From NCBI GenBank assembly GCA_016180925.1, contig JACPAH010000002.1, forward strand, positions 1 through 59,818: DNA of 59,818 bases, in the 5' to 3' direction. A program made the translations under genes and the position numbers. This document shows positions 1-58,620 of this stretch, one piece after another (the first letter of the stretch is position 1; each line of letters begins with the position of its first letter). The notes below the pieces were generated by a model. It had not been told where the DNA came from and did not search any database. It saw nothing but the letters and a program-made list of their open reading frames with translations. The stretch is from Candidatus Aenigmatarchaeota archaeon. GTDB lineage: Archaea > Aenigmatarchaeota > Aenigmatarchaeia > GW2011-AR5.

Positions 1-3
1 CTG

Positions 4-47
4 CGGAAGACAAAGTCTTCCGAGATGCCAAAAAGCTTCGCTTTTTG
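4..47. repeat. two short tandem hairpins (CGGAAGAC-aaa-GTCTTCCG and CAAAAAGC-ttc-GCTTTTTG) joined by AGATGC; member of the window-wide hairpin family
   Basis: inverted repeats read directly; linker and CAAAAG/CTTTTG stem base resemble 15544-15593 and 58316-58362. Confidence 0.5.
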
Positions 48-54
48 AGCATAT

Positions 55-172
55 GTGAAGCAAATAAGCATATCGGGATTCTTTATTTGCTTCACTATAA
101 AGAAAAGTCTTGGTGTCTGCAAAGAGCAAAGCTCTTTGAGACCTCAAAAACCCTTAAAGAGGTTTTTGCAGG
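55..172. repeat. divergent copy of the composite hairpin repeat: long hairpin GTGAAGCAAATAA..TTATTTGCTTCAC, then TCTGCAAAGAGC-aaa-GCTCTTTG, AGACCT, CAAAAACC..GGTTTTTG, CAGG
   Basis: same order of modules as 15497-15593 and 58268-58362; stems differ but remain complementary. Confidence 0.5.
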
Positions 173-7887: not shown

Positions 7888-8541
7888 ATGCAGAAAGACG
7901 AGCTTTTCAGGGAACTGCTCCTGCAGGGCGTCCGTGAAGGAGTAATAAACGCCATGAAGAAGGTGCCCAGGGAGGACTTCGTCCTGCCCGAGGACGCCGA
8001 CAAGGCATACTGCAACTACCCCCTTCTTCTCCATGAAGGCCAGACCATATCACAACCATTAACTGTCGCGCTGATGACAGAATGGCTGGACGTAAGAGCG
8101 GGCCACAAAGTGCTTGAGGTCGGCGCCGGAAGCGGCTACCAGGCTGCAATATTATCCGTCCTTGCCGGCCCGGAAGGCGGTGTCGTCACGTGCGAAGTCC
8201 GGAAAAGGCTTTACGAATTCGCAAGAAAGAATCTTGAAAGATACGGAAATGTCAAGGTAGTCCATGCGGACGGCTCGAAAGGCTATGTTGAGAGGAATTC
8301 TTTGACTTCCTCTAACATCTCAAAGGAACTCCGTTCCTTTGCAGATGACGGCAAGTTCGACAGGATAATTCTCACAGCCTCGGCAAAAAAGATGCCTGAA
8401 GCCCTCCTCGGCCACCTGAAGGAAGGCGGCATGGCCGTGCTGCCCGTAGGCGACGAGATGTATCTTGTGGAAAGACGCAACAAAAACAAATTCCTAAAGG
8501 AGATGAAAGGTTACTTCGCTTTCGTGCCGCTCGTGGAATAG
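7888..8541 (+). CDS. pcm: protein-L-isoaspartate O-methyltransferase, carrying a 19-codon repeat-derived insert
   Basis: GQTISQP, VLEVGAGSGYQAA, DRIILTA and VLPVG motifs of the Pcm family. Confidence 0.9.
   Translation: MQKDELFRELLLQGVREGVINAMKKVPREDFVLPEDADKAYCNYPLLLHEGQTISQPLTVALMTEWLDVRAGHKVLEVGAGSGYQAAILSVLAGPEGGVVTCEVRKRLYEFARKNLERYGNVKVVHADGSKGYVERNSLTSSNISKELRSFADDGKFDRIILTASAKKMPEALLGHLKEGGMAVLPVGDEMYLVERRNKNKFLKEMKGYFAFVPLVE
8290..8346. repeat. double-hairpin repeat unit inside pcm (AGAGGAA..TTCCTCT, AACATCT, CAAAGGAAC-tcc-GTTCCTTTG, CAGAT)
   Basis: same unit as the intergenic copies; exactly 57 nt, in frame. Confidence 0.7.
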
Positions 8542-13087: not shown

Positions 13088-15460
13088 TCACAGCTCCACC
13101 TTCAACTCGCCGTAATCCGGCCTTTCCACGCCATGCGTGTACACTATGTCCTTCTCCACGCCCTTCAGGTTCTCTGGCATGACGAGCCTGCTAACCTTGG
13201 CTTTCAGCGAAAGTCCCGCATCTTTCTTCGCCTTCCACACGGCGCTGTTCAGCTCTTCCACGTCCTTGGATGAGAACGGCACTTCATACAGCACATTCGG
13301 CTCCGGGAACTTCTCTTTGTGGATGTCGTCACCCCTCATTTTCAGATAAAGCTCGTATGTGACGAAAGGCACTATCGGGGCAAGGAGCTTCAGGAGCACG
13401 TCGACGCAGTAGTGTAATGTATAGAGCGCCGATTCCTGCTGCTTCCTGGTGAAGGCCCCGGCCTGGTTGTATGCCCGGTTCTTCACGAGCTCAATATAAT
13501 GCGAGGCGAAGGTCTCCCACAGGAAATGCTTCAGCCTCGTTGCAGGCTCATGAAAATCGTATATTTCGTACCTCTGCCGGCAGAAATCGGCCAGCAGGTT
13601 GAGCTCGTTCAGTATCCACTTGTCGAGCTCCTCAAGATGCGATGCCGTCTCTGTCCTCTCGAACATCGACACGAAGCGGCATACATTCCACAGCTTCGTT
13701 ATCGTCTTCGAAGCGCCCTCTATGCGCTCGAACGAGCATTTCAGGTCCCCTTCGGAAATATTTCCTTCCGTGGCGCACCACAGCCTGAACGGCTCGGCGC
13801 CGTATTTTTCCAGGATTTTGTGAGGGTCTATTACGTTGCCGACGCTCTTTGACATCTTCTTTCCGGCCTCGTCGACTATGTGGTGATGTATCCAGACATC
13901 GTCAAATATTATCCTGTCCGTCAGCACGTAAGACTTCAGAAGCGTGTAGTAAAGCCATGTCCGCACTATCTCCTTCCCCTGCGGCCTCAAAGTGCACGAA
14001 TGCTGCCTGTTGAAGAACTCCCTGTCCGAATGCCATTTTAGTATGTAGAGCGGCGACGAAGAGGAGTCGAACCACGTGTCGAAGACCCGCTCCTCGCCCC
14101 TAAAGTCAGCGGAACCGCACTCGGGGCACCTGCCGACCGGGCATTTTTCCTTCCATGGCGTGTAGTACCTGCCTTTCTCCGGCACGAGCACGTGGCCGTT
14201 GCTGCAGTACCACAGCGGAATCTCGGTCGCATAGTAGCGCCTTCTGGAAATCGGCCAGTCTATGCTCACGCTGTCGAGCCAGTCAAGGAGGATTTGCCTG
14301 CTCTTTGGCGAATAGAAGCTTATGGCGTCCGAAGCGCTCCTCAAGGTTTCCTTCAGTTCGGTCTGCTTCATGTAGAATTCCTTCATCTCTATGAACTCGA
14401 CCGGATGCTTTGAGCGCTCGCATATCGGCGTCCTGTGGACGACTTCTTTGCTGGAGGCGAGAAGCCCGTTCTTTTTCAATTCTTCAATCATCTTTGTCCT
14501 TGCCTCTTCCACTTTCAAGCTCCGGAGGAATCCGGCGTTGTCGTTCATCCTTCCGTCGGTTCCTATGCTTATCACGGGCTCAAGATGCATCTCCCTGAAG
14601 AACCTTATGTCCGTCTGGTCGCCTGCCGAGCACATCATGGCAAGGCCCGTGCCCTTCCCCATGTCAGCGAAAGGATGGGCCTTGAGCGGGACTTCCTTCC
14701 CGAACAGCGGCGTAATTGCGGTCTTTCCGTCGAGTTCCGCATACCTTTTGTCCTCCGGGTTGAATATCACCATGCCGCATGAAGGGATGAGTTCGGGCCG
14801 TGTCGTCCCTATCACGATATTCTCGCCGGTTTCCTTGACCCTGAACTTGACTTCGTTGAACAGGGTATTCATGTCCTTGTAATCGATTTCGGCATCCGCT
14901 ATGCTCGTCCTGCAGCCGGGGCAGTAGTTGTTGATTCGCGTGTCCTCGTAGATGTATCCCATGTGCCACAGCTCTATGAACGTCTCCTGCGTCATGGCCC
15001 TGTACTCATACGAATCCGTGAAATAAACGCTTCCCGGCTTTTCGCCGGGTTCCCATGAGTTGAAGCTTATGCCAAGGCGCAGGAAGGAATCCATGCTTTC
15101 AGTGCTGCTTTCCTCCAGGACCTGCCTGCACATCCTGACGAACTCCTCCCTTGGGACGTCTGACATGCGCTTGCTGAACTTCTTCTCCGCCGCCATCTCT
15201 ATAGGAAGCCCGTTCCTGTCGAGCCCCAGAGGGAACAGGACGTTGTATCCCGTCATCCTCCGGAAGCGGGCGAACATGTCCATGAGCGTGTACGTCGCGG
15301 CATGGCCTATGTGAACAGGAGTGTTGACGTAAGGGGGCGGCGTGTCTATGCTGAACGTCGGTTTCGGGGATTTTGCATCAAAACCGTATTCGCCCGAGAG
15401 CTTCCATTTCTGGCGGATTTCCTTCTCCATCTCCTTGTCCCATCTTGATGGCATGTCCAT
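13088..15460 (-). CDS. valS: class I aminoacyl-tRNA synthetase, most likely valyl-tRNA synthetase (compact, 790 aa)
   Basis: FSIDTPPPYVN..HIGH, YNVLFPLG.D..GLP, DWPISRRR and KMSKS motifs; the FxIDTPPP pattern favours ValRS over Ile/LeuRS. Confidence 0.75.
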   Translation of the reverse strand: MDMPSRWDKEMEKEIRQKWKLSGEYGFDAKSPKPTFSIDTPPPYVNTPVHIGHAATYTLMDMFARFRRMTGYNVLFPLGLDRNGLPIEMAAEKKFSKRMSDVPREEFVRMCRQVLEESSTESMDSFLRLGISFNSWEPGEKPGSVYFTDSYEYRAMTQETFIELWHMGYIYEDTRINNYCPGCRTSIADAEIDYKDMNTLFNEVKFRVKETGENIVIGTTRPELIPSCGMVIFNPEDKRYAELDGKTAITPLFGKEVPLKAHPFADMGKGTGLAMMCSAGDQTDIRFFREMHLEPVISIGTDGRMNDNAGFLRSLKVEEARTKMIEELKKNGLLASSKEVVHRTPICERSKHPVEFIEMKEFYMKQTELKETLRSASDAISFYSPKSRQILLDWLDSVSIDWPISRRRYYATEIPLWYCSNGHVLVPEKGRYYTPWKEKCPVGRCPECGSADFRGEERVFDTWFDSSSSPLYILKWHSDREFFNRQHSCTLRPQGKEIVRTWLYYTLLKSYVLTDRIIFDDVWIHHHIVDEAGKKMSKSVGNVIDPHKILEKYGAEPFRLWCATEGNISEGDLKCSFERIEGASKTITKLWNVCRFVSMFERTETASHLEELDKWILNELNLLADFCRQRYEIYDFHEPATRLKHFLWETFASHYIELVKNRAYNQAGAFTRKQQESALYTLHYCVDVLLKLLAPIVPFVTYELYLKMRGDDIHKEKFPEPNVLYEVPFSSKDVEELNSAVWKAKKDAGLSLKAKVSRLVMPENLKGVEKDIVYTHGVERPDYGELKVEL

Positions 15461-15496
15461 GAATATAACAATGGATTTCAGGTTTTAATAATTATA

Positions 15497-15640
15497 GTGA
15501 AACCAGAAAAGAATCCGAACATGAATTCTGGTTTCACATATCTGCAGAAAGCATAGCTTTCTGACATCTCAAAAGACTCTGTCTTTTGCAGATAGTGCAC
15601 AAGGAAAATAATATCTTATTTCTTTCCTTGTAGCACTATA
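15497..15640. repeat. composite hairpin repeat, copy B: GTGAAACCAGAA..TTCTGGTTTCAC, CAGAAAGC-ata-GCTTTCTG, ACATCT, CAAAAGAC-tct-GTCTTTTG, CAGAT, GTGCACAAGGAAA..TTTCCTTGTAGCAC
   Basis: near-identical by eye to 58268-58415 over about 145 nt; differences inside the stems are largely compensated. Confidence 0.75.
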
Positions 15641-18038: not shown

Positions 18039-18458
18039 ATGGATGGTTCTCTGAAGAGTTCTCATGCTAGGAAAAATTTCTTACTTATTGGGTTGCTCTT
18101 TGCATTCGTCTTCGCGATGGCGGCGCCTTCGCAGGCAGCTTTGATGAATATCACGGTGGTGCAGGAAATAAGAAACCTCAGTTATTATACCATAAGCGAC
18201 CCGGTAAACGCTTCCAATATCACATTTGTCCAGCCTGAACTCAAGATAAATGTCACGGGCAACATAACCACCGTCTATAATTTCACGCTCACCGTTGATG
18301 GTGTCGAGGGACAATCATACAACATCACGAACAACACTGCTGTATATGTTAATATTTCAACCAGGCTTGCCAACGGGACGCACACCGTCTGTCATAAACG
18401 TGAGCGCCGGCACCGGAGCAACCACGAACGCCACCAATACAACGGACACCACGCCTGA
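18039..18458 (+). CDS. N-terminal fragment (signal peptide plus first repeat) of the large surface glycoprotein, in a different frame from the main body
   Basis: signal peptide LLIGLLFAFVFAMAAPSQA; NxS/T-rich repeat like the downstream repeats up to ..ANGTHTV, then nonsense (CHKRERRHR..). Confidence 0.6.
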   Translation: MDGSLKSSHARKNFLLIGLLFAFVFAMAAPSQAALMNITVVQEIRNLSYYTISDPVNASNITFVQPELKINVTGNITTVYNFTLTVDGVEGQSYNITNNTAVYVNISTRLANGTHTVCHKRERRHRSNHERHQYNGHHA

Positions 18459-21219
18459 AATACTGTTCAACCTGACTGACAATGCTGAAACGGACCAGAT
18501 AAACGTCAGCGTATACGTGGGATTCACAGGAGGAACCCTAAGCTATGACGGCAGCAAATTAATCACTAACAATACTATCGGCAGGTTCAATCTCTCGGCA
18601 AGGGCAAATGGCACTTTCCTAGTGAGATTTGAGGCAAATGATTCAGCGCGCAACCTTGCAAACGCCTCCCTGCTTACTATAACTGTCGACGACACAGCGC
18701 CGGTTTTTCAGGCGTTCACAGGCTCCGGCGGCACAGGAGCCACCCTCAATGCCACCAACACGACGGATACGACGCCTGAAGTACTTTTCAACCTCACCGA
18801 CAACGCCGAGACTGACCAGATAAATGTCAGTGTCTATATTGGCGGCACTTATGACAACTCATTTCTCTTCACTAATAACACGATAGGAAGATACAACCTG
18901 TCGGCAAGGGCAAACGGCACTTTCAGCGTTCGATTCGAGGCAAATGATTCCGCAGGAAACCTCGCCAATGCCTCCCTGTTCACAATATATGTTGACGACA
19001 CGAAGCCTTCATTCCAGTCGTTTAACTCGACTACTGGAACTACCAACAATGCCACAAACTTCACTGACACGACACCTGAAATAATAGTTAATTTCACTGA
19101 CGCCGGCGGCAGCTTCACCTTGATAAATGTTAGCCTCTATATCGGCAGCACGTTTGACCATACAGAGCTTCTCGCAAACAACACCCTTGCGAGAATAAAC
19201 GTGACTTCAGCAAGGGCTAACGGGACATTTATCTTAAGGCTGGAATCCAATGATTCTGCGGGCAATTTAGCAAACGCTTCACTGCTCACGATAACAGTTG
19301 ACGACACCAAGCCTGTATTCCAGCCGTTCAATCCTGGCAACAGCACCTCTACGAATGCCACAAATACCACGGATACAACCCCCGAGATAGCAGTCAACCT
19401 GACAGATAACGGCTTCACCACGATAAACGTCAGCGTTTATATTGACAGCACGTTCATGCAGACGTTCCTGTTCACGAATAACACGATAAACAGGGTCAAC
19501 CTTACAGCTAGGGCAAACGGCACGTTCTGGATAAGGTTTGAAGCCAATGACTCTTCAGCGAATCTTGCCAATGCAAGCCTCCTGACAATAACTGTCGACG
19601 ACACGAAGCCCGCATTCAATACATTCGACGCGTCAAATGGCGCCACTGACAATGCCACAAATACCACGGACACGACGCCGGAAATTCTGGTCAACCTGAC
19701 AGACAACGGATTTACCTCGATAAACATCAGCGCTTACATAGACGGCACATTTACCCAGACTTACCTGATAACGAACAACACTATCACGCGCATAAATCTC
19801 TCAATGGCTGGAAACAACACACCTGCAAACGGCACCCATATCGTGCGCTTCGAGGCAAATGACTCCTCCGGGAACCTGGCAAACGCGTCGCTGTTCACGA
19901 TAACCACCGATGCCGAGGCGCCTTACATAACGATATCCTCGCCTGTGAACAACACCAACACGACGGACCTCACCCCGGCATTCCAGTTCACGCTCATTGA
20001 CAATTCGTCTGCGTTCCTCAACGTGCTGAACTGGACGATATGGGTGGACGGCGCAGTCAACGGCCAGACGGGTCTTGCGGCCAACAACACACTGGTTAAC
20101 GTTTCGCTCAATGTGCTTTCAAATGTCACGCATAATATTACTATACAGGTCGGCGACTTCCTCAACAACACGAGAAACCTCACAAGATGGCATGTTTCAA
20201 CAGATGCCGTTGCACCTGTCCTCACGATATCACATTCGCCTACAACTATCTATCAGGGCAATGTGGTCACGGTCTCATGCACCATAGCCGAGAACCTGCT
20301 TACAGTTGCATCCAAGTTGACTGTAACGAAGCCGAACAGCCAGGTCACGACTCTCTCTGGCTGCGGTGCTGAATTCGGCGACACGACTGCCGTCGGCACA
20401 TATACAATCACGCTCACAGCAAATGACACAGCGGGCAATGGCGCCACGTCAACCAAGACATTTGCCGTAAGCGACTCCGGCGGCTCTTCCTCCAGCAGCA
20501 GCGGGGGCGGCGGAAGCAGCAGCGCAGCGGCGTCCACGCCAAGCACGACAGCCTCGAAGACCCTGATAGTCGATTCATTCGTTCCTGACAAGCCGAACGT
20601 GGTCAAGCTTACGAGCGAGAACATAGGCTTCAAGGAAATAAGCGTTGACATCACAAACAAGGTCAATGCCGTCGAGATAAAGGTGGTGAAGACGGACTCA
20701 GCGCCTGCTGAAGTGACAAAGGCTGTTGAAGGCAAAGTCTACCAGTACATAGAAATAAAGCACGACAAGCTGAAGGATGATAATATAAAGAGTGCAAAAG
20801 TCAAGTTCACTGTTACAAACAAATGGGCAACTGACAACGGCGTTGCAAAGGAAAATGTAGTCCTGAAGAGGTTCAAGGAAGGCTCGTGGACGGACATGAA
20901 AACAACGCTTTCAAGCGAAAGCTCAACAGAGACAACTTACGAGGCCGAGCTTCCAGGTCTTTCGGTGTTCGCAATAGGCGAAGCCGTGCCGACTGCCGCA
21001 GCCCAGCAGCCTGCCGAACAGCCTTCACAACAAACTGGACAGCAGCCTGCGCAACAACCTGCAACGCCTTCAGCTCCGGAGCAGCCTTCGGCGCAACAAC
21101 CAACTGCGGCATATTCAAATGAAACGATGTACTACGTTGCCGGCGGCGTCATACTGGTCCTTATAATCGCTTACTTCTGGGTGAAAGCCAGGAAGATAGG
21201 CAAGACTAAGAAGAAATAA
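18295..21219 (+). CDS. large sequon-rich surface glycoprotein (S-layer-like): about 6-7 tandem repeats of about 100 aa, Ser/Gly linker, PGF-pre-PGF-like domain, Q/P-rich stalk, C-terminal TM anchor
   Basis: repeats TNATNTTDTTPE...ARANGTF.VRFEANDS.GNLANASL.TITVDDTKP; ..YEAELPGLSVFAIG; final hydrophobic helix plus KARKIGKTKKK. The true 5' end is probably supplied by 18039..about 18390. Confidence 0.8.
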   Translation: MMVSRDNHTTSRTTLLYMLIFQPGLPTGRTPSVINVSAGTGATTNATNTTDTTPEILFNLTDNAETDQINVSVYVGFTGGTLSYDGSKLITNNTIGRFNLSARANGTFLVRFEANDSARNLANASLLTITVDDTAPVFQAFTGSGGTGATLNATNTTDTTPEVLFNLTDNAETDQINVSVYIGGTYDNSFLFTNNTIGRYNLSARANGTFSVRFEANDSAGNLANASLFTIYVDDTKPSFQSFNSTTGTTNNATNFTDTTPEIIVNFTDAGGSFTLINVSLYIGSTFDHTELLANNTLARINVTSARANGTFILRLESNDSAGNLANASLLTITVDDTKPVFQPFNPGNSTSTNATNTTDTTPEIAVNLTDNGFTTINVSVYIDSTFMQTFLFTNNTINRVNLTARANGTFWIRFEANDSSANLANASLLTITVDDTKPAFNTFDASNGATDNATNTTDTTPEILVNLTDNGFTSINISAYIDGTFTQTYLITNNTITRINLSMAGNNTPANGTHIVRFEANDSSGNLANASLFTITTDAEAPYITISSPVNNTNTTDLTPAFQFTLIDNSSAFLNVLNWTIWVDGAVNGQTGLAANNTLVNVSLNVLSNVTHNITIQVGDFLNNTRNLTRWHVSTDAVAPVLTISHSPTTIYQGNVVTVSCTIAENLLTVASKLTVTKPNSQVTTLSGCGAEFGDTTAVGTYTITLTANDTAGNGATSTKTFAVSDSGGSSSSSSGGGGSSSAAASTPSTTASKTLIVDSFVPDKPNVVKLTSENIGFKEISVDITNKVNAVEIKVVKTDSAPAEVTKAVEGKVYQYIEIKHDKLKDDNIKSAKVKFTVTNKWATDNGVAKENVVLKRFKEGSWTDMKTTLSSESSTETTYEAELPGLSVFAIGEAVPTAAAQQPAEQPSQQTGQQPAQQPATPSAPEQPSAQQPTAAYSNETMYYVAGGVILVLIIAYFWVKARKIGKTKKK

Positions 21220-21281: not shown

Positions 21282-21369
21282 GGGCTGGTAGATCAACTGG
21301 AAGATCGCTTGCATGGCATATCTTGCGAGCCAAGGCAAGAGGCTACGGGTTCGAGTCCCGTCCAGTCCA
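21282..21369 (+). tRNA. tRNA-Ala(GGC) with an intron of about 15 nt (21319-21333) in the anticodon loop
   Basis: manual cloverleaf: acceptor GGGCTGG/CCAGTCC with G3:U70, D arm GATC-AACTGGAA-GATC, anticodon stem CTTGC/GCAAG enclosing 22 nt, variable AGGCT, T arm ACGGG-TTCGAGT-CCCGT, discriminator A; CCA not encoded. Confidence 0.8.
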
Positions 21370-21370
21370 T

Positions 21371-21420
21371 AAGCCCCTTTTCTTTTCAAAAAAGAAAAGG
21401 CCCTTGGGTTCAAAAGAAAA
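21371..21420 (+). repeat. trailer module AAGCCCC-[11-bp hairpin]-GGCCCTTGGGTTCAA.., homologous to the 5' part of the tRNA-Cys intron (58491-58540)
   Basis: by-eye alignment; hairpin arms CCTTTTCTTTT/AAAAGAAAAGG here versus CCTTCTTTCTT/AAGAAAGAAGG there, changed on both arms. Confidence 0.6.
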
Positions 21421-21453
21421 TAATATATTTTAAGAGAAGAGGAGGTTGATAAG

Positions 21454-21576: not shown

Positions 21577-22137
21577 TCAAATCCCCCCGTGTCCACTTTT
21601 CATCTTCTTGATTATCATATCGACGATTTGCTCCGGCTCCTTGTCCGACGTGTCCACCACGATATCGGCCTCGTTCTCCTGCGAGAAAGTGTCGAAGCCG
21701 TATATATGGAGGAAGCTCTGCCTCTCTATCCTGTCCCTCTCCTTCACGGCTCTCAGTGCGTCCTTTTCAGGCATGCCGTCCCTGCCGGAGATGCGCCTGG
21801 CCCTGACCTCGTCCGGCGCCTTGAGCCATACAGATACGCTGTACAAGCCCGAAAGAAGGCGTATGGAAAGCTTGCCGTCTATGACTATATTCCCGGCTCT
21901 TGCAAGCTCTTTCTGAAGGTCGTCGATGTTGACGTGAAAATCCCTCCTGGAGCCCTTCTTTGTAAGGAGGAACTCAGTTGCCCGCCTTGTTTCACCCTCA
22001 TTTACGCCGCTCTCAATGGCTTTTTGCTTGAAGAAATCCCCGGCCGAGAAATGCTTCAGCCCCAGACGCTTTGCCAGAAGCTTGGCGACGGTCGACGAGC
22101 CCGCTCCCGGCATTCCGGAAACGACTATGACTGTCAT
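21577..22137 (-). CDS. cmk: archaeal-type cytidylate (CMP) kinase
   Basis: P-loop SGMPGAGSSTVAKLLAKRLGLKHFSAGDFF and overall layout of archaeal Cmk; adenylate-kinase-like alternatives not excluded. Confidence 0.75.
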   Translation of the reverse strand: MTVIVVSGMPGAGSSTVAKLLAKRLGLKHFSAGDFFKQKAIESGVNEGETRRATEFLLTKKGSRRDFHVNIDDLQKELARAGNIVIDGKLSIRLLSGLYSVSVWLKAPDEVRARRISGRDGMPEKDALRAVKERDRIERQSFLHIYGFDTFSQENEADIVVDTSDKEPEQIVDMIIKKMKSGHGGI

Positions 22138-22187
22138 AGAAGTGTATTGCTAGTCAAATAGATAAATATGACGTATTTGGCAGCAAT

Positions 22188-22245
22188 GTACAAAAGACAA
22201 AGCCTTTTGACATGCCAAAGAACTTTCAGTTCTTTGCGCATATGC
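22188..22245. repeat. double hairpin unit (CAAAAG-acaaagc-CTTTTG, ACATGC, CAAAGAAC-tttca-GTTCTTTG, CGCAT)
   Basis: inverted repeats read directly. Confidence 0.55.
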
Positions 22246-22337
22246 TAACCAACGTATTAATGTCTTGAATATTAAGTTGGTTAACTATTTTGCAGGAACA
22301 ATGTTAAATACCCTTCGCCACCTATTCTGTTATGGCA

Positions 22338-22446
22338 ATCTGCAAATGTGCGAAAACCGAAGGATTTCGACATCCCAAAGGAATTCTATTCCTTTGCGGA
22401 AAGCTTCGCTCTTTGAGATCTCAAAGGAGGGACCTCCTTTGAAGAT
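22338..22446. repeat. array of four family hairpins (ATCTGCA.., CGAAAACC-gaa-GGATTTCG, ACATCC, CAAAGGAAT-tct-ATTCCTTTG, .., GAGATCT, CAAAGGAG-ggac-CTCCTTTG, AAGAT)
   Basis: read directly; 22369-22400 is nearly identical to 24983-25014. Confidence 0.6.
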
Positions 22447-23416: not shown

Positions 23417-23553
23417 GGCAGGTAGCTTAGCCTGGTAGAGCACCTGACTGATATCGCAGAAAGCGCAGCTTTCTGGGAGCTTGGAAAGAAGGAAACACTG
23501 AAGTTCTTTCCCAATCATCAGGAGGTCGAGAGTTCAAATCTCTTCCTGCCCAT
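23417..23553 (+). tRNA. tRNA-Ile(GAU) with a 63-nt anticodon-loop intron (23455-23517)
   Basis: manual cloverleaf: acceptor GGGCAGG/CCTGCCC, D arm GCTT-AGCCTGGTA-GAGC, anticodon stem CCTGA/TCAGG, loop CTGATA+A, variable AGGTC, T arm GAGAG-TTCAAAT-CTCTT, discriminator A. Confidence 0.85.
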
Positions 23554-24774: not shown

Positions 24775-25024
24775 AAACCGGACTTCGACTTCAAATTCAG
24801 ATTTAAATAGCTTATCACCGAATTAAAGTAAGCTCTCACGTACTCGGAAAGGCATAGTTTTGTCTTTCGCCGCGTTCTACGTACAGGCAATTGACGCCTC
24901 CGGCGCCGGTCTGGTTGGGCGAGGGCCAGTCCTCAGAGAGAACTGGTTCGCTGACAAAGGAATTTCATATTTACTCAAATAACATCCCAAAGGAATAGAA
25001 TTCCTTTGCGGAGAGGAATGGAGA
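24775..25024 (+). promoter_or_regulatory. non-coding leader of about 250 nt upstream of rpl3, with a GC-rich structured core and a terminal family hairpin (24983-25014)
   Basis: no credible ORF; CGCCGCGT..ACGCCTCCGGCG, palindrome CCGGCGCCGG, CCAGT..ACTGG, then ACATCC-CAAAGGAAT-aga-ATTCCTTTG-CGGAGAGG just before the ATG. Confidence 0.4.
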
Positions 25025-27850: not shown

Positions 27851-27915
27851 TCATTTCAATTGCTCAAAGACCGAAGGTCTTTGGCATCTCAAAAGGGCAA
27901 AGCTCTTTTGCAGAT
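27851..27915. repeat. family double hairpin in the L2-S19 spacer (TCATTTCAATTGCT, CAAAGACC-gaa-GGTCTTTG, GCATCT, CAAAAGGGC-aaa-GCTCTTTTG, CAGAT)
   Basis: read directly; homologous flank-to-flank with 29047-29111. Confidence 0.7.
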
Positions 27916-27947
27916 TCAAAAACAGAAATCTGTGTGGTGTCTTAGAA

Positions 27948-29046: not shown

Positions 29047-29111
29047 TCCATTTCATTGCCCAGAGAACTCCTGTTCTCTGGCATCTCAAAAGAGACACCT
29101 CTTTTGCAGAT
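29047..29111. repeat. family double hairpin in the L22-S3 spacer (TCCATTTCATTGC, CCAGAGAAC-tcct-GTTCTCTGG, CATCT, CAAAAGAG-acac-CTCTTTTG, CAGAT)
   Basis: read directly; homologous to 27851-27915. Confidence 0.7.
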
Positions 29112-30580: not shown

Positions 30581-30607
30581 TGCAAATGGAATACAATTCC
30601 ATTTGAT
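30581..30607. repeat. single family hairpin TG-CAAATGGAAT-aca-ATTCCATTTG-AT in the Rpp29-S17 spacer
   Basis: read directly. Confidence 0.5.
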
Positions 30608-37978: not shown

Positions 37979-39496
37979 GTGAAAATGAATTTTGTTTCGA
38001 TTGCGTCAAGGCTTCCGGGCATAGAGGAGCCCAAGGTCCATCTCAATTTCAAGGCGAGGCTTAAGTGGACCGTTATAATACTCCTGCTTTTCATAATACT
38101 CTCGCACATAACTCTTTTCGGCGTGTCGCCAGAGGAGCGCCAGAGGTTCCAGTTCTTCGAGCTCATACTTGGCTCCTCCATCGGCACTCTGATGACGCTG
38201 GGCATAGGGCCTATCGTGACGGCATCCATAATACTCCAGCTTCTGGTCGGTTCCAAGATAATACCGTGGAACCTCAGGGACCCGGAAGGCAAGAGGAAGT
38301 TCCAGTCGGCGCAAAAACTCATGGTCATATTCTTCTGCGTGTTCGAGGCCTTCGCTTATGTGAGCTTCGGCGCGATAAAATCGTCTTCACCCGACTTCAC
38401 ACTGGTGCTTATAGCGCAGATAGCCTTCGGCGGCTACCTCGTGCTGCTCATGGACGAGGTGATTTCCAAGTGGGGCATAGGCTCCGGCGTCTCGCTCTTC
38501 ATAGCGGAGAACGTGTCGAGGACGATATTCGTCCGCGCATTGAATCCCCTGACACCGCTTGGCGAAACCATACCGTCCGGCCTCATACCGCAGTCCATCT
38601 CGTTCATAGGGCTGGGCGACATGTTCCAGGCCGCGATAGCATGGGTTCCGATAATCGCAACCGTGATAGTATTCCTGACTGTCGTCTACATACAGGCCAT
38701 GAAGGTGGAGATACCGCTCGCGTTCGGCAGCATACGCGGCTTCAGCCGGAGATGGCCCCTTAACATGATATACACGAGCAACATGCCCGTCATTCTTATC
38801 GCCGCTTTGCTTGCAAACCTCCAGCTCGTGGGCACGATGGTTGCAAGGCAGACCGAGGAAGGCCTCCGCTGCGGATTCCTCGGATGCTTCGACAGCAACA
38901 ACATCGCCATAAGCGGGATAGTGCAGTTCTTCCAGCCTGTCGCCTCGCTTCCGGTGCAGATATTCTTCCTCACGATACTTTCCATAGTGTTCATAACGGC
39001 TTTCGCTTCGTTCTACTTCAAGTTCAGGCACGGCCCCAGGATGGTACTGGCGGCAGGGACTGCCAGCGTCATGCTGGCTATTCTCATATCATCAGCTACG
39101 GTAGGCATGCCGACATGGGATGAATTCCTCCGCGCCGGCGTTTATTCTCTCCTGCTCATAGCCGGCTCTGTCATGTTCTCCGTTTTCTGGGTGTCGACAA
39201 GCGGAATGGACGCCAGGAGCGTCGCCGAGCAGATAGAAGGCCTCGGCATGCAGATACCTGGATTCCGCCGCGACCCAAGGATAATCGAGCAGGTCCTCAA
39301 CCGCTACATACCGACGCTTGCCATAATATCCGGCCTGTTCATCGGCACGCTGGCGGCAGTGGCCGACTTCACCGGCGCCCTCGGCACCGGCACAGGAATA
39401 CTGCTCATGGTGATGATAATCTACAATCTCTACGAGAATATAGCCAACAGGTACATGGAAGACATGCACCCGGCCATGAGGAAGTTCTTCAGGTAG
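37979..39496 (+). CDS. secY: preprotein translocase subunit SecY
   Basis: 10-TM pattern; ..LGIGPIVTASIILQLL.. plug/TM2 region; closes the cluster as usual. Confidence 0.93.
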   Translation: MKMNFVSIASRLPGIEEPKVHLNFKARLKWTVIILLLFIILSHITLFGVSPEERQRFQFFELILGSSIGTLMTLGIGPIVTASIILQLLVGSKIIPWNLRDPEGKRKFQSAQKLMVIFFCVFEAFAYVSFGAIKSSSPDFTLVLIAQIAFGGYLVLLMDEVISKWGIGSGVSLFIAENVSRTIFVRALNPLTPLGETIPSGLIPQSISFIGLGDMFQAAIAWVPIIATVIVFLTVVYIQAMKVEIPLAFGSIRGFSRRWPLNMIYTSNMPVILIAALLANLQLVGTMVARQTEEGLRCGFLGCFDSNNIAISGIVQFFQPVASLPVQIFFLTILSIVFITAFASFYFKFRHGPRMVLAAGTASVMLAILISSATVGMPTWDEFLRAGVYSLLLIAGSVMFSVFWVSTSGMDARSVAEQIEGLGMQIPGFRRDPRIIEQVLNRYIPTLAIISGLFIGTLAAVADFTGALGTGTGILLMVMIIYNLYENIANRYMEDMHPAMRKFFR

Positions 39497-39541
39497 AACT
39501 TCCTCATCGAAAACAGCGCCCGCAAGAACATAACAATCAGA

Positions 39542-41208: not shown

Positions 41209-41916
41209 TCAGAATAGCCTGACCACAATGAACGCAAAAAGCAGCATGCTTGCGAAGTCGGCGAGCGACGTCGTTATCGGCACGAGGAAGTTGTTCGGGT
41301 CCTCCTTCTTCCTGTATATGTAGATGCCGGCCGCGAGCGATGCCAGGAATATTATTCCAACGAGTATCATGGTGCACAAAACCGAGACAGCCATGACCTT
41401 CAGGAACACTGACGGGTCGAACGGGAAGCCGCCGTAATATGCCATGCCATATGATACCGCCCCGATGTACAGCGACGTTATCAGGGCGACGGCAAGAAGC
41501 GTCGCCATAAGCTTCCTAAGCCCAGGAGATTTCATCACGCCTGCCCTGATGCTTATCTTCCCTGTATAGAGCATGGCAGTGAACTTCGACGAGACTATGG
41601 TGCCGTAATCCCCTATCATGTCGTTCAGTGCCGGGAGCATTATCAGCAGCGGAATTATGGTGACGAGCTTTTCCTTCACGTTCTCAAGGCCCACGCCGCC
41701 TACCGAGCTTATGATGGCCGCTATTATAAGGATTTTCATGCTTTCCTTCATGATGACGGAAGCGATATGTGACCTCGTCCCGTATTCCTTCATGTAGAAG
41801 AGCGTCATGTAGGATATCCTGTGTTTCTTGTGCATTGAATGGATGACAGGGTGGTGCTTATGGCGCTTTATGCCGTGCAGCTTCGCGAATTTCTTGTCAA
41901 TCTTCAAAGGAGGCAC
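41209..41916 (-). CDS. MgtE-type divalent-cation transporter membrane domain protein
   Basis: ..IIPLLIMLPALNDMIGDYGTIVSSKF.. and five TM helices; the GTG start lies inside a repeat hairpin, so the true start may be further downstream. Confidence 0.7.
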   Translation of the reverse strand: MPPLKIDKKFAKLHGIKRHKHHPVIHSMHKKHRISYMTLFYMKEYGTRSHIASVIMKESMKILIIAAIISSVGGVGLENVKEKLVTIIPLLIMLPALNDMIGDYGTIVSSKFTAMLYTGKISIRAGVMKSPGLRKLMATLLAVALITSLYIGAVSYGMAYYGGFPFDPSVFLKVMAVSVLCTMILVGIIFLASLAAGIYIYRKKEDPNNFLVPITTSLADFASMLLFAFIVVRLF

Positions 41917-41954
41917 CTCCTTTGATATCTCAAAAAACTTCGTTCTTTGCAGAG
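41903..41954. repeat. family double hairpin between the two MgtE-domain genes (CAAAGGAG-gcac-CTCCTTTG, ATATCT, CAAAAAAC-ttc-GTTCTTTG, CAGAG)
   Basis: read directly; reads as the same consensus on either strand. Confidence 0.65.
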
Positions 41955-58253: not shown

Positions 58254-58267
58254 TTTCGCGATTTATA

Positions 58268-58415
58268 GTGAAGCCAGAAAAGAATCCGGACATGAATTCC
58301 GGTTTCACATATGCTCAAAAGCGAAGCTTTTGGCATCTCAAAAGACTCTGTCTTTTGCAGATAGTGCACAAGGAAAATAAATATATTGTTTCTTTCTTTG
58401 CATGACTATAAATGT
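58268..58415. repeat. composite hairpin repeat, copy C; its 3' part carries the TATA-like ACTATAAATG (58405-58414) about 25 nt upstream of tRNA-Cys
   Basis: near-identical by eye to 15497-15640. Confidence 0.75.
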
Positions 58416-58437: not shown

Positions 58438-58620
58438 GCTGGCGTGACAGAACGGCCATCTGCAAAGACCGTAGATGTGACCGCCTGCAGAAGCCCCTTC
58501 TTTCTTCAAAAGAAAGAAGGCCCTTGGGTTCAAGAAAGAATAAGCAAAATTATTATGAATATTCTTGAATCCTGCAGAAGCAGCAAGCGGTATAACCCGG
58601 TTCAACTCCGGGCGCCAGCT
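58438..58620 (+). tRNA. tRNA-Cys(GCA) with a 15-nt D-arm insertion (58461-58475) and a 95-nt anticodon-loop intron (58491-58585)
   Basis: manual fold after removing both: acceptor GCTGGCG/CGCCAGC, TG, D stem ACAG/CTGT, loop AACGGCCAT, G26, anticodon stem ACCGC/GCGGT, loop CTGCAG+A, variable ATAA, T arm CCCGG-TTCAACT-CCGGG, discriminator U (Cys identity). Confidence 0.7.

Follow-up and report, generated by a model that had tools for sequence, protein, structure and literature searches.

A TA-flanked two-hairpin repeat of groundwater Aenigmarchaeota, probably a MITE, occupies existing promoters

Two nearly identical sequences of 143-144 nt, composed of successive hairpins, lie beside an aminoacyl-tRNA synthetase gene and a tRNA gene of a Candidatus Aenigmatarchaeota archaeon, raising the question of what kind of element they are and how they came to be there. 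We analysed a window of 59,818 nt, the whole stretch of DNA under study, which contains intron-containing tRNAs and leaderless-type promoters. The original prediction offered three identities: a small non-coding RNA gene, a mobile promoter or leader cassette, or a MITE. Comparison with related sequences strongly favours the last option, as the repeat appears to be a mobile insertion with TA duplication, i.e. a non-autonomous DNA transposon (MITE). The promoter option holds in part, whereas the RNA-gene option was not borne out. The family of this probable MITE is abundant in the genomes of groundwater Ca. Aenigmarchaeota (DPANN). An exact-pattern scan of GTDB genomes located the first hairpin of the element in groundwater metagenome-assembled genomes (MAGs) of Ca. 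Aenigmatarchaeota and of 'uncultured archaeon', and the public runs containing the element sequence were groundwater DNA metagenomes only, with no RNA runs among them. We found no description of this Aenigmarchaeota family in the literature.

The two long copies, here called B and C, are identical in 128 of 146 columns upon global alignment of the exact elements, in agreement with the near-identity initially noticed. A repeat search of the window returned them as two blocks, 15492-15541 against 58263-58312 (94%) and 15559-15611 against 58328-58380 (96%). Their module order is as first described, and the hairpin originally numbered 1 is indeed replaced between the copies while pairing in both, with CAGAAAGC/GCTTTCTG in one and CAAAAGC/GCTTTTG in the other. 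The copies placed at 15497-15640 and 58268-58415 are real but their limits are not, the exact TA-flanked elements being 15495-15638 and 58266-58408 (Table 1). A third co-linear copy had been assigned to 55-172; instead, positions 1-97 are a reverse-complement copy (A') and 117-171 an independent mini-element, which was misread because the palindromic first hairpin is alike on either strand. Copy A' agrees with copy C in 80 of 104 aligned columns. It was recovered as inverted repeats (43-101 against 58262-58320, 80%; 1-33 against 58328-58360) and as a minus-strand match of the covariance model R1, described below, at 26-95 with 51.8 bits. As DNA, the composite element is predicted to fold into four successive hairpins with -37.9 kcal/mol (z = -9.5 against dinucleotide shuffles).

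Table 1. Coordinates of the repeat copies, their probable target-site duplications and the adjoining genes in the window
Feature	Position	Strand	Description
Class I aminoacyl-tRNA synthetase gene	13088..15460	-	Pfam tRNA-synt_1 and Anticodon_1; ATG at 15460
Copy B, left target-site-duplication TA	15493..15494	.	Single TA in the L135/L136 empty site (CGCATC-TA-ATTATT)
Copy B, composite element (probable MITE)	15495..15638	+	144 nt; termini TAGTG...CACTA; covariance model R1 60.2 bits
Copy B, core hairpin 1	15497..15537	+	12-bp stem GTGAAACCAGAA/TTCTGGTTTCAC, conserved loop AAGAATCCGAACATGAA
Copy B, nested double-hairpin mini-element	15542..15591	+	50 nt; termini CTGCAG...CTGCAG; AT at 15540-15541 and 15592-15593
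Copy B, core hairpin 2	15593..15638	+	TAGTGC-A-CAAGGAAA ... TTTCCTTG-TA-GCACTA
Copy B, right target-site-duplication TA	15639..15640	.	TA on both sides of the insert in the window
Copy C, left target-site-duplication TA	58264..58265	.	L141/L142 empty site GCGATT-TA-AATGTATTCC
Copy C, composite element (probable MITE) in the tRNA-Cys TATA box	58266..58408	+	143 nt; covariance model R1 46.6 bits
Copy C, nested double-hairpin mini-element	58313..58360	+	48 nt; AT at 58311-58312 and 58361-58362; core position as in B and A'
Copy C, right target-site-duplication TA	58409..58410	.	With the element end forms CTATAAAT, 27 nt before the tRNA
tRNA-Cys(GCA), two introns	58438..58620	+	ARAGORN calls tRNA-Cys only with both introns removed
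Copy A', inverted, cut by the window edge	1..97	-	Hairpin 1 and nested mini-element; TA at 98-99
Separate double-hairpin mini-element beyond the end of copy A'	117..171	+	CTGCAAAG...TTTTGCAG

We found sites lacking the element through homologues of the flanking proteins, the MBL protein for copy B and the exchanger for copy C; the related loci derived from the sequence pattern gave exact duplicates only and no empty sites. In the loci L135 and L136, the MBL protein is 87% identical and synteny is complete, with a spacer of 82 nt compared with 227 nt in the window. There, ...CGCATC-TA-ATTATTAAAACC corresponds to ...CGCATC-TA-[144 nt]-TA-ATTATTAAAACC in the window, the junctions being CGCATC-TA-ATTATTAAAACCTGG and CGCATC-TA-[TAGTGCTAC...GGTTTCACTA]-TA-ATTATTAAAACCTGA, respectively. 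Copy B is also missing from the MBL-synthetase spacer of the more distant L137 (76%) and L138 (57% protein identity). Likewise, copy C is missing from L141 and L142, two separate assemblies with an exchanger 94% identical, in which GCGATT-TA-AATGTATTCC takes the place of GCGATT-TA-[143 nt]-TA-AATGTATTCC. The empty sites thus read ..CATC-TA-ATTATT.. and ..GATT-TA-AATG.., and the filled ones ..TA-[TAGTG...CACTA]-TA... Since one TA in the empty sites corresponds to TA-element-TA in the window, copies B and C can be read as insertions with TA duplication, even though a 2-nt overlap at the junctions by itself fits both a true duplication and a duplication-free insertion beside TA. Together with the many further copies having like flanks, these orthologous sites are what speaks for the MITE among the three identities.

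A 600-nt spacer at the locus of copy C shows how variable the occupancy is. It is empty in L141, holds the composite in the window, and differs again in L139 and L143. L139 (89%) carries, at the same TA as copy C, a core-only element from another subfamily and also has a second, inverted copy before a DUF167 gene; in L143 (83%), a copy lies within the DUF167 ORF. L139 is the more distant relative, yet it is filled at a TA left vacant in the closer L141, which counts against the MITE reading and implies either two independent hits on one dinucleotide or precise loss.

The mobile core of the family comprises two adjacent hairpins of approximately 92-93 nt with the termini TAG...CTA; the matched stretch between GTG and CTA measures 89-92 nt, to which the terminal TA is added. 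Its consensus, drawn from related genomes and metagenome contigs, is TA-GTGAAnnnnnnn-[AAGAATCCrGAcATG..]-nnnnnnnTTCAC-AtA-TAGnnC-n-CAAGGAAr-[..ATATCCAGAATG]-TTTCCTTG-nA-GnnCTA. The original prediction had proposed a genome-wide copy census with flank analysis and a covariation test. Covariance model R1, trained on 13 core-only copies, recovered 51 distinct copies from related Aenigmarchaeota loci totalling about 320 kb, the lowest listed score being 32.6 bits; many of these copies did not fit the initial search pattern. Copies can be dense: R1 found five in 10.6 kb of L029 and three in 1.1 kb of L053, some relatives have one copy per 2-3 kb, and the element has approximately ten times the depth of its flanks in metagenome contigs. 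TA..TA flanks were present in 46 of the 51 copies, including those found with R1 and not just those from the pattern that forced TATA; T precedes the TA in 38 and A follows it in 39, so that the target consensus is the palindrome T-TA-A. Copy B has TAGTG.../...CACTA as its terminal inverted repeat, and almost every copy has TAG...CTA; the repeat extends to about 15 nt (TATAGYTRACCAAST) in one subfamily and is short in most copies.

The stems of the core vary while remaining paired. In an alignment fitted to the covariance model, 96.9% of the stem cells are paired and both sides have changed in 11 of 26 pairs, although many changes are common to subfamilies, making the independent events fewer than the cells; partners slid by 1-3 columns pair at 37-49%. 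Helix 1 is paired in 95.8% of its cells with six pairs changed on both sides, and helix 2 in 97.9% with five. Examples are CCCACAA/TTGTGGG, ACCAGAA/TTCTGGT, GCAAATA/TATTTGC, TAGTGC/GCACTA, TAGTTC/GAACTA, TAGCGC/GCGCTA and TTGTTC/GAACAA. The loops AAGAATCCrGAcATG and ATATCCAGAATG are more conserved than the stems across diverged lineages. Structure-preserving stem changes therefore exist, as the covariation test had been expected to reveal, yet do not by themselves imply an RNA.

The composite arose by nesting. Core-only copies, without the central hairpin pair, read CACATATAGTGCAC, and metagenome contigs from three runs lack precisely the 52 nt of 15540-15591, the junction being ambiguous by 2 nt; the gap defines a 50-nt insert that has the termini CTGCAG...CTGCAG and duplicated AT. 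Other lineages have a comparable hairpin pair either in the linker or within the hairpin-2 loop, some in both places, and the nest of L051 reaches 312 nt. Composites with the mini-element at one and the same core position are copies A', B and C and a copy in L009, from a related MAG. This common position indicates that the composite originated a single time and was subsequently propagated whole.

Both long copies sit where a promoter is expected. Copy B is located between the stop codon of the MBL-fold gene and the start of the minus-strand class I aminoacyl-tRNA synthetase gene, and copy C between the Na/Ca-exchanger gene and tRNA-Cys(GCA), whose orthologue in L143 has no introns. The TATA-like end of copy C that had been judged correctly spaced for tRNA-Cys is CTATAAAT, at -32..-25 of the tRNA. 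For copy B, no gene had been recognised downstream, which is correct for the plus strand, but its other end adjoins the promoter of the minus-strand synthetase. The 'TATA' at each end of the element is made of its own terminal TA and the duplicated TA. Element-free promoters in the window have TATA approximately 26-35 nt before the start codons. The targets before insertion, as preserved in the empty sites, are themselves TATA boxes: TAATTATTAAAA for the synthetase, the edge of which was the target of copy B when the upstream region is compared with the empty site, and TTTAAAT for tRNA-Cys. The boxes after insertion, CACTATAATTATT and GACTATAAAT, keep the former distance from the synthetase and tRNA-Cys starts. 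From these positions, the element ends very probably serve as TATA boxes of the adjoining genes. Because the empty sites already had a TATA box, the sequence comparison indicates that the element inserted into existing promoters and did not bring a promoter where none was. The idea of a mobile promoter is right about the ends, which lie at the TATA positions of the neighbouring genes, and fails on the origin of the promoter; the association can be attributed to a target preference combined with the rebuilding of the box by insertion.

We propose that the core of about 92-93 nt would insert at TA, preferably T-TA-A, and duplicate the TA. Earlier in this lineage, a mini-element of 48-50 nt probably entered the core linker, and the resulting 143-144-nt composite would then have spread. 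The movement would depend on a transposase acting in trans, the most likely candidate being a DDE enzyme from the IS630/Tc1-mariner group, which duplicates TA, as suggested by the TA duplication, the palindromic target and the TA-initial termini; by this analogy, we give an IS630-like mobilising enzyme an even chance. A preference for T-TA-A would make archaeal TATA boxes (TTTAAA/TTATAA) frequent targets. Insertions into promoters might be tolerated because each end regains a TATA-like box from the terminal and the duplicated TA, and the element end would afterwards act as part of the promoter of the adjoining gene. The perfect yet variable stems could be kept at the DNA level, either because transposition needs the hairpin or through hairpin-templated palindrome correction, rather than by selection on an RNA. 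Palindrome correction by intrastrand template switching is a known mutational process. The composite is in keeping with a MITE in its size (143-144 nt, below ~300 bp), its hairpins over the whole length and its absence of coding capacity, as well as in its terminal inverted repeats, the TA duplication at two loci and the dispersed copies variable in presence and absence. Two features of the element itself count against the MITE reading. The terminal repeat is short and the symmetry resides mostly within the single hairpins, an uncommon arrangement for a MITE derived by deletion, and the loops outconserve the stems, for which a purely selfish element has no obvious need. Also against it, we detected no transposase and no longer element with the same termini in the window or between the paired termini in ten loci, where the intervals encode housekeeping proteins (CCA-adding enzyme, methyltransferase, UPP synthase, Fic, HtpX and RNR), and no transposase domain in the annotated neighbourhoods of the fetched homologous contigs.

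The same hairpins could serve a different type of mobility, in which an IS200/IS605-type PATE or a REP/BIME-like element moves as a single strand, with a Y1 HUH transposase recognising subterminal hairpins and inserting beside a TA-containing target without true duplication. The core consists of exactly two subterminal hairpins, many mini-hairpins have a 1-nt bulge near the foot, and variable but perfectly paired stems with conserved loops would be expected if folded DNA were the substrate. Like REP/BIME elements with their RAYT and the PATEs, our elements include short intergenic hairpins with variable stems, conserved feet and inverted pairs, the last being the arrangement of mini-hairpins in BIMEs, and the 2-nt overlap is formally compatible with this route. 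We nevertheless consider it unlikely. The symmetric flanks (T-TA / TAG...CTA / TA-A) and the palindromic target fit a dimeric cut-and-paste enzyme better than an IS200/IS605 enzyme inserting 3' of its one-sided target, the empty sites have one TA, and the two hairpins are unlike each other in most subfamilies. In contrast to REP/BIME and PATEs, the element has symmetric TA duplications and also occurs inside ORFs and introns, and neither a Y1 transposase nor a TnpB gene turned up in the annotated or scanned neighbourhoods of these incomplete genomes. There is a similarly small chance of something further afield, either a structure-dependent mobility system new to archaea or promoter-embedded, protein-binding hairpins recruited by the host to couple many promoters to one factor. 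We entertain it because the loop motif ATCCrGAnATG of the two hairpins is conserved across diverged Aenigmarchaeota, the paired stems drift, TATA boxes are hit repeatedly, the tRNA-Cys promoter on two independent occasions, and no transposase was found in these very small genomes.

A cassette maintained by selection, whose outward CTATAA ends drive the flanking genes and whose hairpins isolate transcription units, would account for ..CTATAA facing outwards at both ends, for the loop motifs conserved across lineages and for the gene context of some copies. An ATG-started ORF begins 20-37 nt outside the hairpin-1 end in 10 of the 51 copies (11 with one TTG start; L107 is a clear example), tRNA genes follow at 19-31 nt from the opposite end in the window, L033 and L060, and the gap from the element to the gene starts is too small for another TATA box. 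Such a portable promoter or insulator is improbable, as the empty sites possess functional-looking TATA boxes at the same distance, to which the element adds nothing obvious, and the same genes in close relatives manage without it. Many copies face the 3' ends of genes or are located in an intron (L001) or an ORF (L143), and in L122 the gap between the end and the tRNA shrinks to about 9 nt. A reading in which the hairpins are the functional product, whether of a structured small RNA gene in many copies or of a cis-acting RNA leader, is very hard to reconcile with the data despite the strong predicted structure, the conserved loops and the compensatory changes in both core helices, where 64 cells have changed on both sides and the observed covariation score was reached in 0 of 500 shuffles. 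This covariation is largely between subfamilies and comprises few events. With the loop-closing pair excluded, A:C cells (10) in the stems are no rarer than G:T cells (7), and neither strand is favoured as an RNA. Moreover, the element is missing from orthologous loci in genomes whose flanking proteins are 87-94% identical, has no consistent partner gene or strand and no conserved upstream promoter besides the TA flanks. Searches of Rfam 15 with both copies and seven related loci gave no match at the gathering score or at E <= 10, and nothing near the gathering score.

Several other candidates were set aside. By eye, we found no C/D boxes, pseudouridylation pocket or tandem G-A pairs that would indicate C/D box, H/ACA or K-turn RNAs. 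Replication-origin ORB boxes, integron attC sites and DGR template/variable repeats were likewise rejected by eye in view of the housekeeping context, the lack of arrays, the non-coding sequence and the double-hairpin, TA-flanked anatomy. Two pattern scans of IMG/VR for a viral source gave chance matches only and no true copies. The ORFs running through elements in L014, L030, L037, L063 and L004 are over-extended calls, in which any Pfam domain starts after the element.

As a probable MITE, the repeat has well-described bacterial counterparts. Bacterial MITEs shorter than 200 bp have terminal inverted repeats, terminal TA and target-site duplications, and those flanked by TA are linked to IS630/Tc1-mariner-type enzymes (PMC2229807). 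Archaeal MITEs are known as well, and some DPANN genomes are reported to contain them at high density (PMC11602168). The closest TA-flanked MITEs are Correia/NEMIS of Neisseria and RUP, which is linked to IS630-Spn1. With these, the Aenigmarchaeota element shares a length below 200 bp, non-coding sequence, TA-initial terminal repeats, target-site duplication, many intergenic copies and strong hairpin potential. Correia elements are the best match: they exist in two lengths, 107 and 155 bp, set apart by an internal 50-bp piece (PMC2229807), as the short and long forms of our element (~92-93 and 143-144 nt) also differ by an internal piece of ~50 bp, and their ends act as promoters (PMC10969869), as those of the Aenigmarchaeota element probably do. 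Unlike Correia elements, ours resides in an archaeal (DPANN) host, where insertion restores a TATA box of the archaeal type and not a sigma-70 -10 box. Its true terminal repeat comprises only a few bases and its body consists of two independent, loop-conserved hairpins instead of one long foldback, and its internal piece can be shown to be a mobile mini-element in its own right, having a separate 2-nt duplication. Stowaway MITEs of the Tc1/mariner-IS630 group combine a TA target and its duplication with small size and an AT-rich, gene-proximal preference. Our element resembles Stowaway and Tc1/mariner-IS630 in these traits, the TA duplication being directly visible in the present data, but no related transposase or autonomous copy was identified. 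The family is of a known MITE kind, and unusual in its two-hairpin body with conserved loops, the targeting of TATA boxes, nesting and very high density.

These elements account for much of the 'structured' intergenic DNA, odd leaders, in-frame inserts and intron content in Aenigmarchaeota MAGs, and they will break assemblies and mislead callers of RNA genes and ORFs. Given how small and streamlined DPANN genomes are, a copy per 2-3 kb in some relatives raises the questions of what mobilises the element and why it is tolerated. The filled and empty alleles constitute a natural set of promoter variants for studies of archaeal transcription initiation, and the pattern of presence and absence is a fine-scale marker for tracking strains in groundwater metagenomes.

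Mini-elements similar to the nested one also entered other sites. Compared with L135, the window has gained them at three places: the PCMT gene, the NAD kinase gene and 22132-22287. The PCMT insert of 60 nt adds 20 codons in frame, in a region without residues in the solved PCMT structures. The NAD-kinase insert directly follows the ancestral ATG and is not a multiple of three, so that this ATG is now out of frame and the start is displaced. Bulge-helix-bulge introns were considered for these hairpins and rejected, since the hairpins have a 1-nt bulge and not two 3-nt bulges around a 4-bp helix, and the in-frame PCMT insert together with the TA and AT duplications fits insertion of DNA better. 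As summarised in PMC2229807, palindromic repeats with coding potential occur in Methanocaldococcus jannaschii (Suyama et al. 2005, as cited therein). Like these repeats and the Rickettsia palindromic elements (RPE), the family of the nested mini-element is found both between genes and in frame within a gene. The likeness to RPE concerns the mini-element family and not the 144-nt composite, with PCMT as its one in-frame case, the NAD-kinase insert not being a multiple of three. A near-identical hairpin is also present in the intron of tRNA-Ile in the window, where it was noticed by likeness.

At the TA within the TATA box of the tRNA-Cys gene, elements of different subfamilies are found in the window (copy C, a composite MITE at 58266-58408) and in the related locus L139 (5930-6020), and the same TA is empty in a third relative that stands nearer to the window than L139 does. 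Because two subfamilies occupy one TA and the closer relative is empty, this distribution requires either a hotspot that was hit twice or the precise loss of an element. The tRNA-Cys(GCA) gene itself, for which ARAGORN made no call and Rfam none at gathering score, has two introns: the one in the D arm measures about 17 nt, the one at 37/38 about 95 nt. Its orthologue in the relative L143 is intron-less, and the first intron is longer in L139 than in the window.

Elements and hairpins also lie in the introns of other tRNA genes. The intron hairpin of tRNA-Ile(GAU) differs only slightly from hairpin 1 of the small element nested in copy B, the other composite MITE of the window; the orthologue in L135, a close relative without copy B, has different intron content and an additional D-loop intron. 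In L001, from a related MAG, a full element with its nested pair is located within one intron of a multi-intron tRNA gene. A third repeat family, consisting of the hairpin CCCCTTyTCTTyC..GAAAGAAGG followed by CCCTTGGGTTCAA, occurs in the window directly past one tRNA and within the long intron of tRNA-Cys, and in L135 within the D-loop intron of tRNA-Ile. This family may be a mobile intron-associated module.

Small hairpin mini-elements, similar to those nested in the composite MITEs, were also identified in or beside protein-coding genes. The PCMT insert is missing from the L135 orthologue (196 aa versus 217 aa in the window), and its position corresponds to a stretch without residues in solved PCMT structures. 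In the NAD kinase gene, the ATG at 22332, the ancestral start codon, is no longer in frame and a stop comes after it; translation probably begins either at a TTG within the final hairpin arm or by read-through from an ATG farther upstream. At 22132-22300, the degenerate hairpin (GCTAACCAAC..AAGTTGGTTAAC) accompanies a mini-element and is weakly matched at 22213-22285 by R1, the covariance model of the MITE core; L135 lacks the mini-element and the hairpin alike. Additional CATCT-CAAAG..CTTTG-C-AGAT-type hairpins are intergenic, some of them within the ribosomal-protein cluster. Two stretches of SecY match its Pfam model; the 3' end of the gene holds a palindrome with a 13-bp stem (39476-39507), which may be another insertion.

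Coordinates of elements, hairpins and genes
Feature	Locus	Position	Strand
In-frame double-hairpin mini-element in PCMT gene, 60 nt (20 codons)	window	8286-8345	
Third repeat family	window	21368-21423; 58488-58543	
Third repeat family	L135	tRNA-Ile D-loop intron	
Third repeat family	L126/L029		
Mini-element (22189-22243) with degenerate single core-type hairpin	window	22132-22300	
Triple-hairpin mini-element immediately 3' of ancestral NAD kinase ATG	window	22340-22444	
Hairpin in tRNA-Ile(GAU) intron	window	23448-23480	
CATCT-CAAAG..CTTTG-C-AGAT-type hairpins	window	24982-25015; 27863-27919; 29060-29106; 30583-30605; 41900-41950	
SecY, 505 aa	window	37979-39496	
tRNA-Cys(GCA), two introns	window	58438-58620	
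Full element with nested pair	L001	390-700	minus

The window also encodes a probable surface protein of 974 aa (18295-21219), composed of Ig-like repeats of about 100 aa each with a period of about 300 nt in the DNA; its orthologue in L135 has 904 aa. The 5.3-kb contig MHFY01000100.1, titled Omnitrophica WOR_2 bacterium, is probably mis-binned, because it carries a typical copy of the archaeal element.
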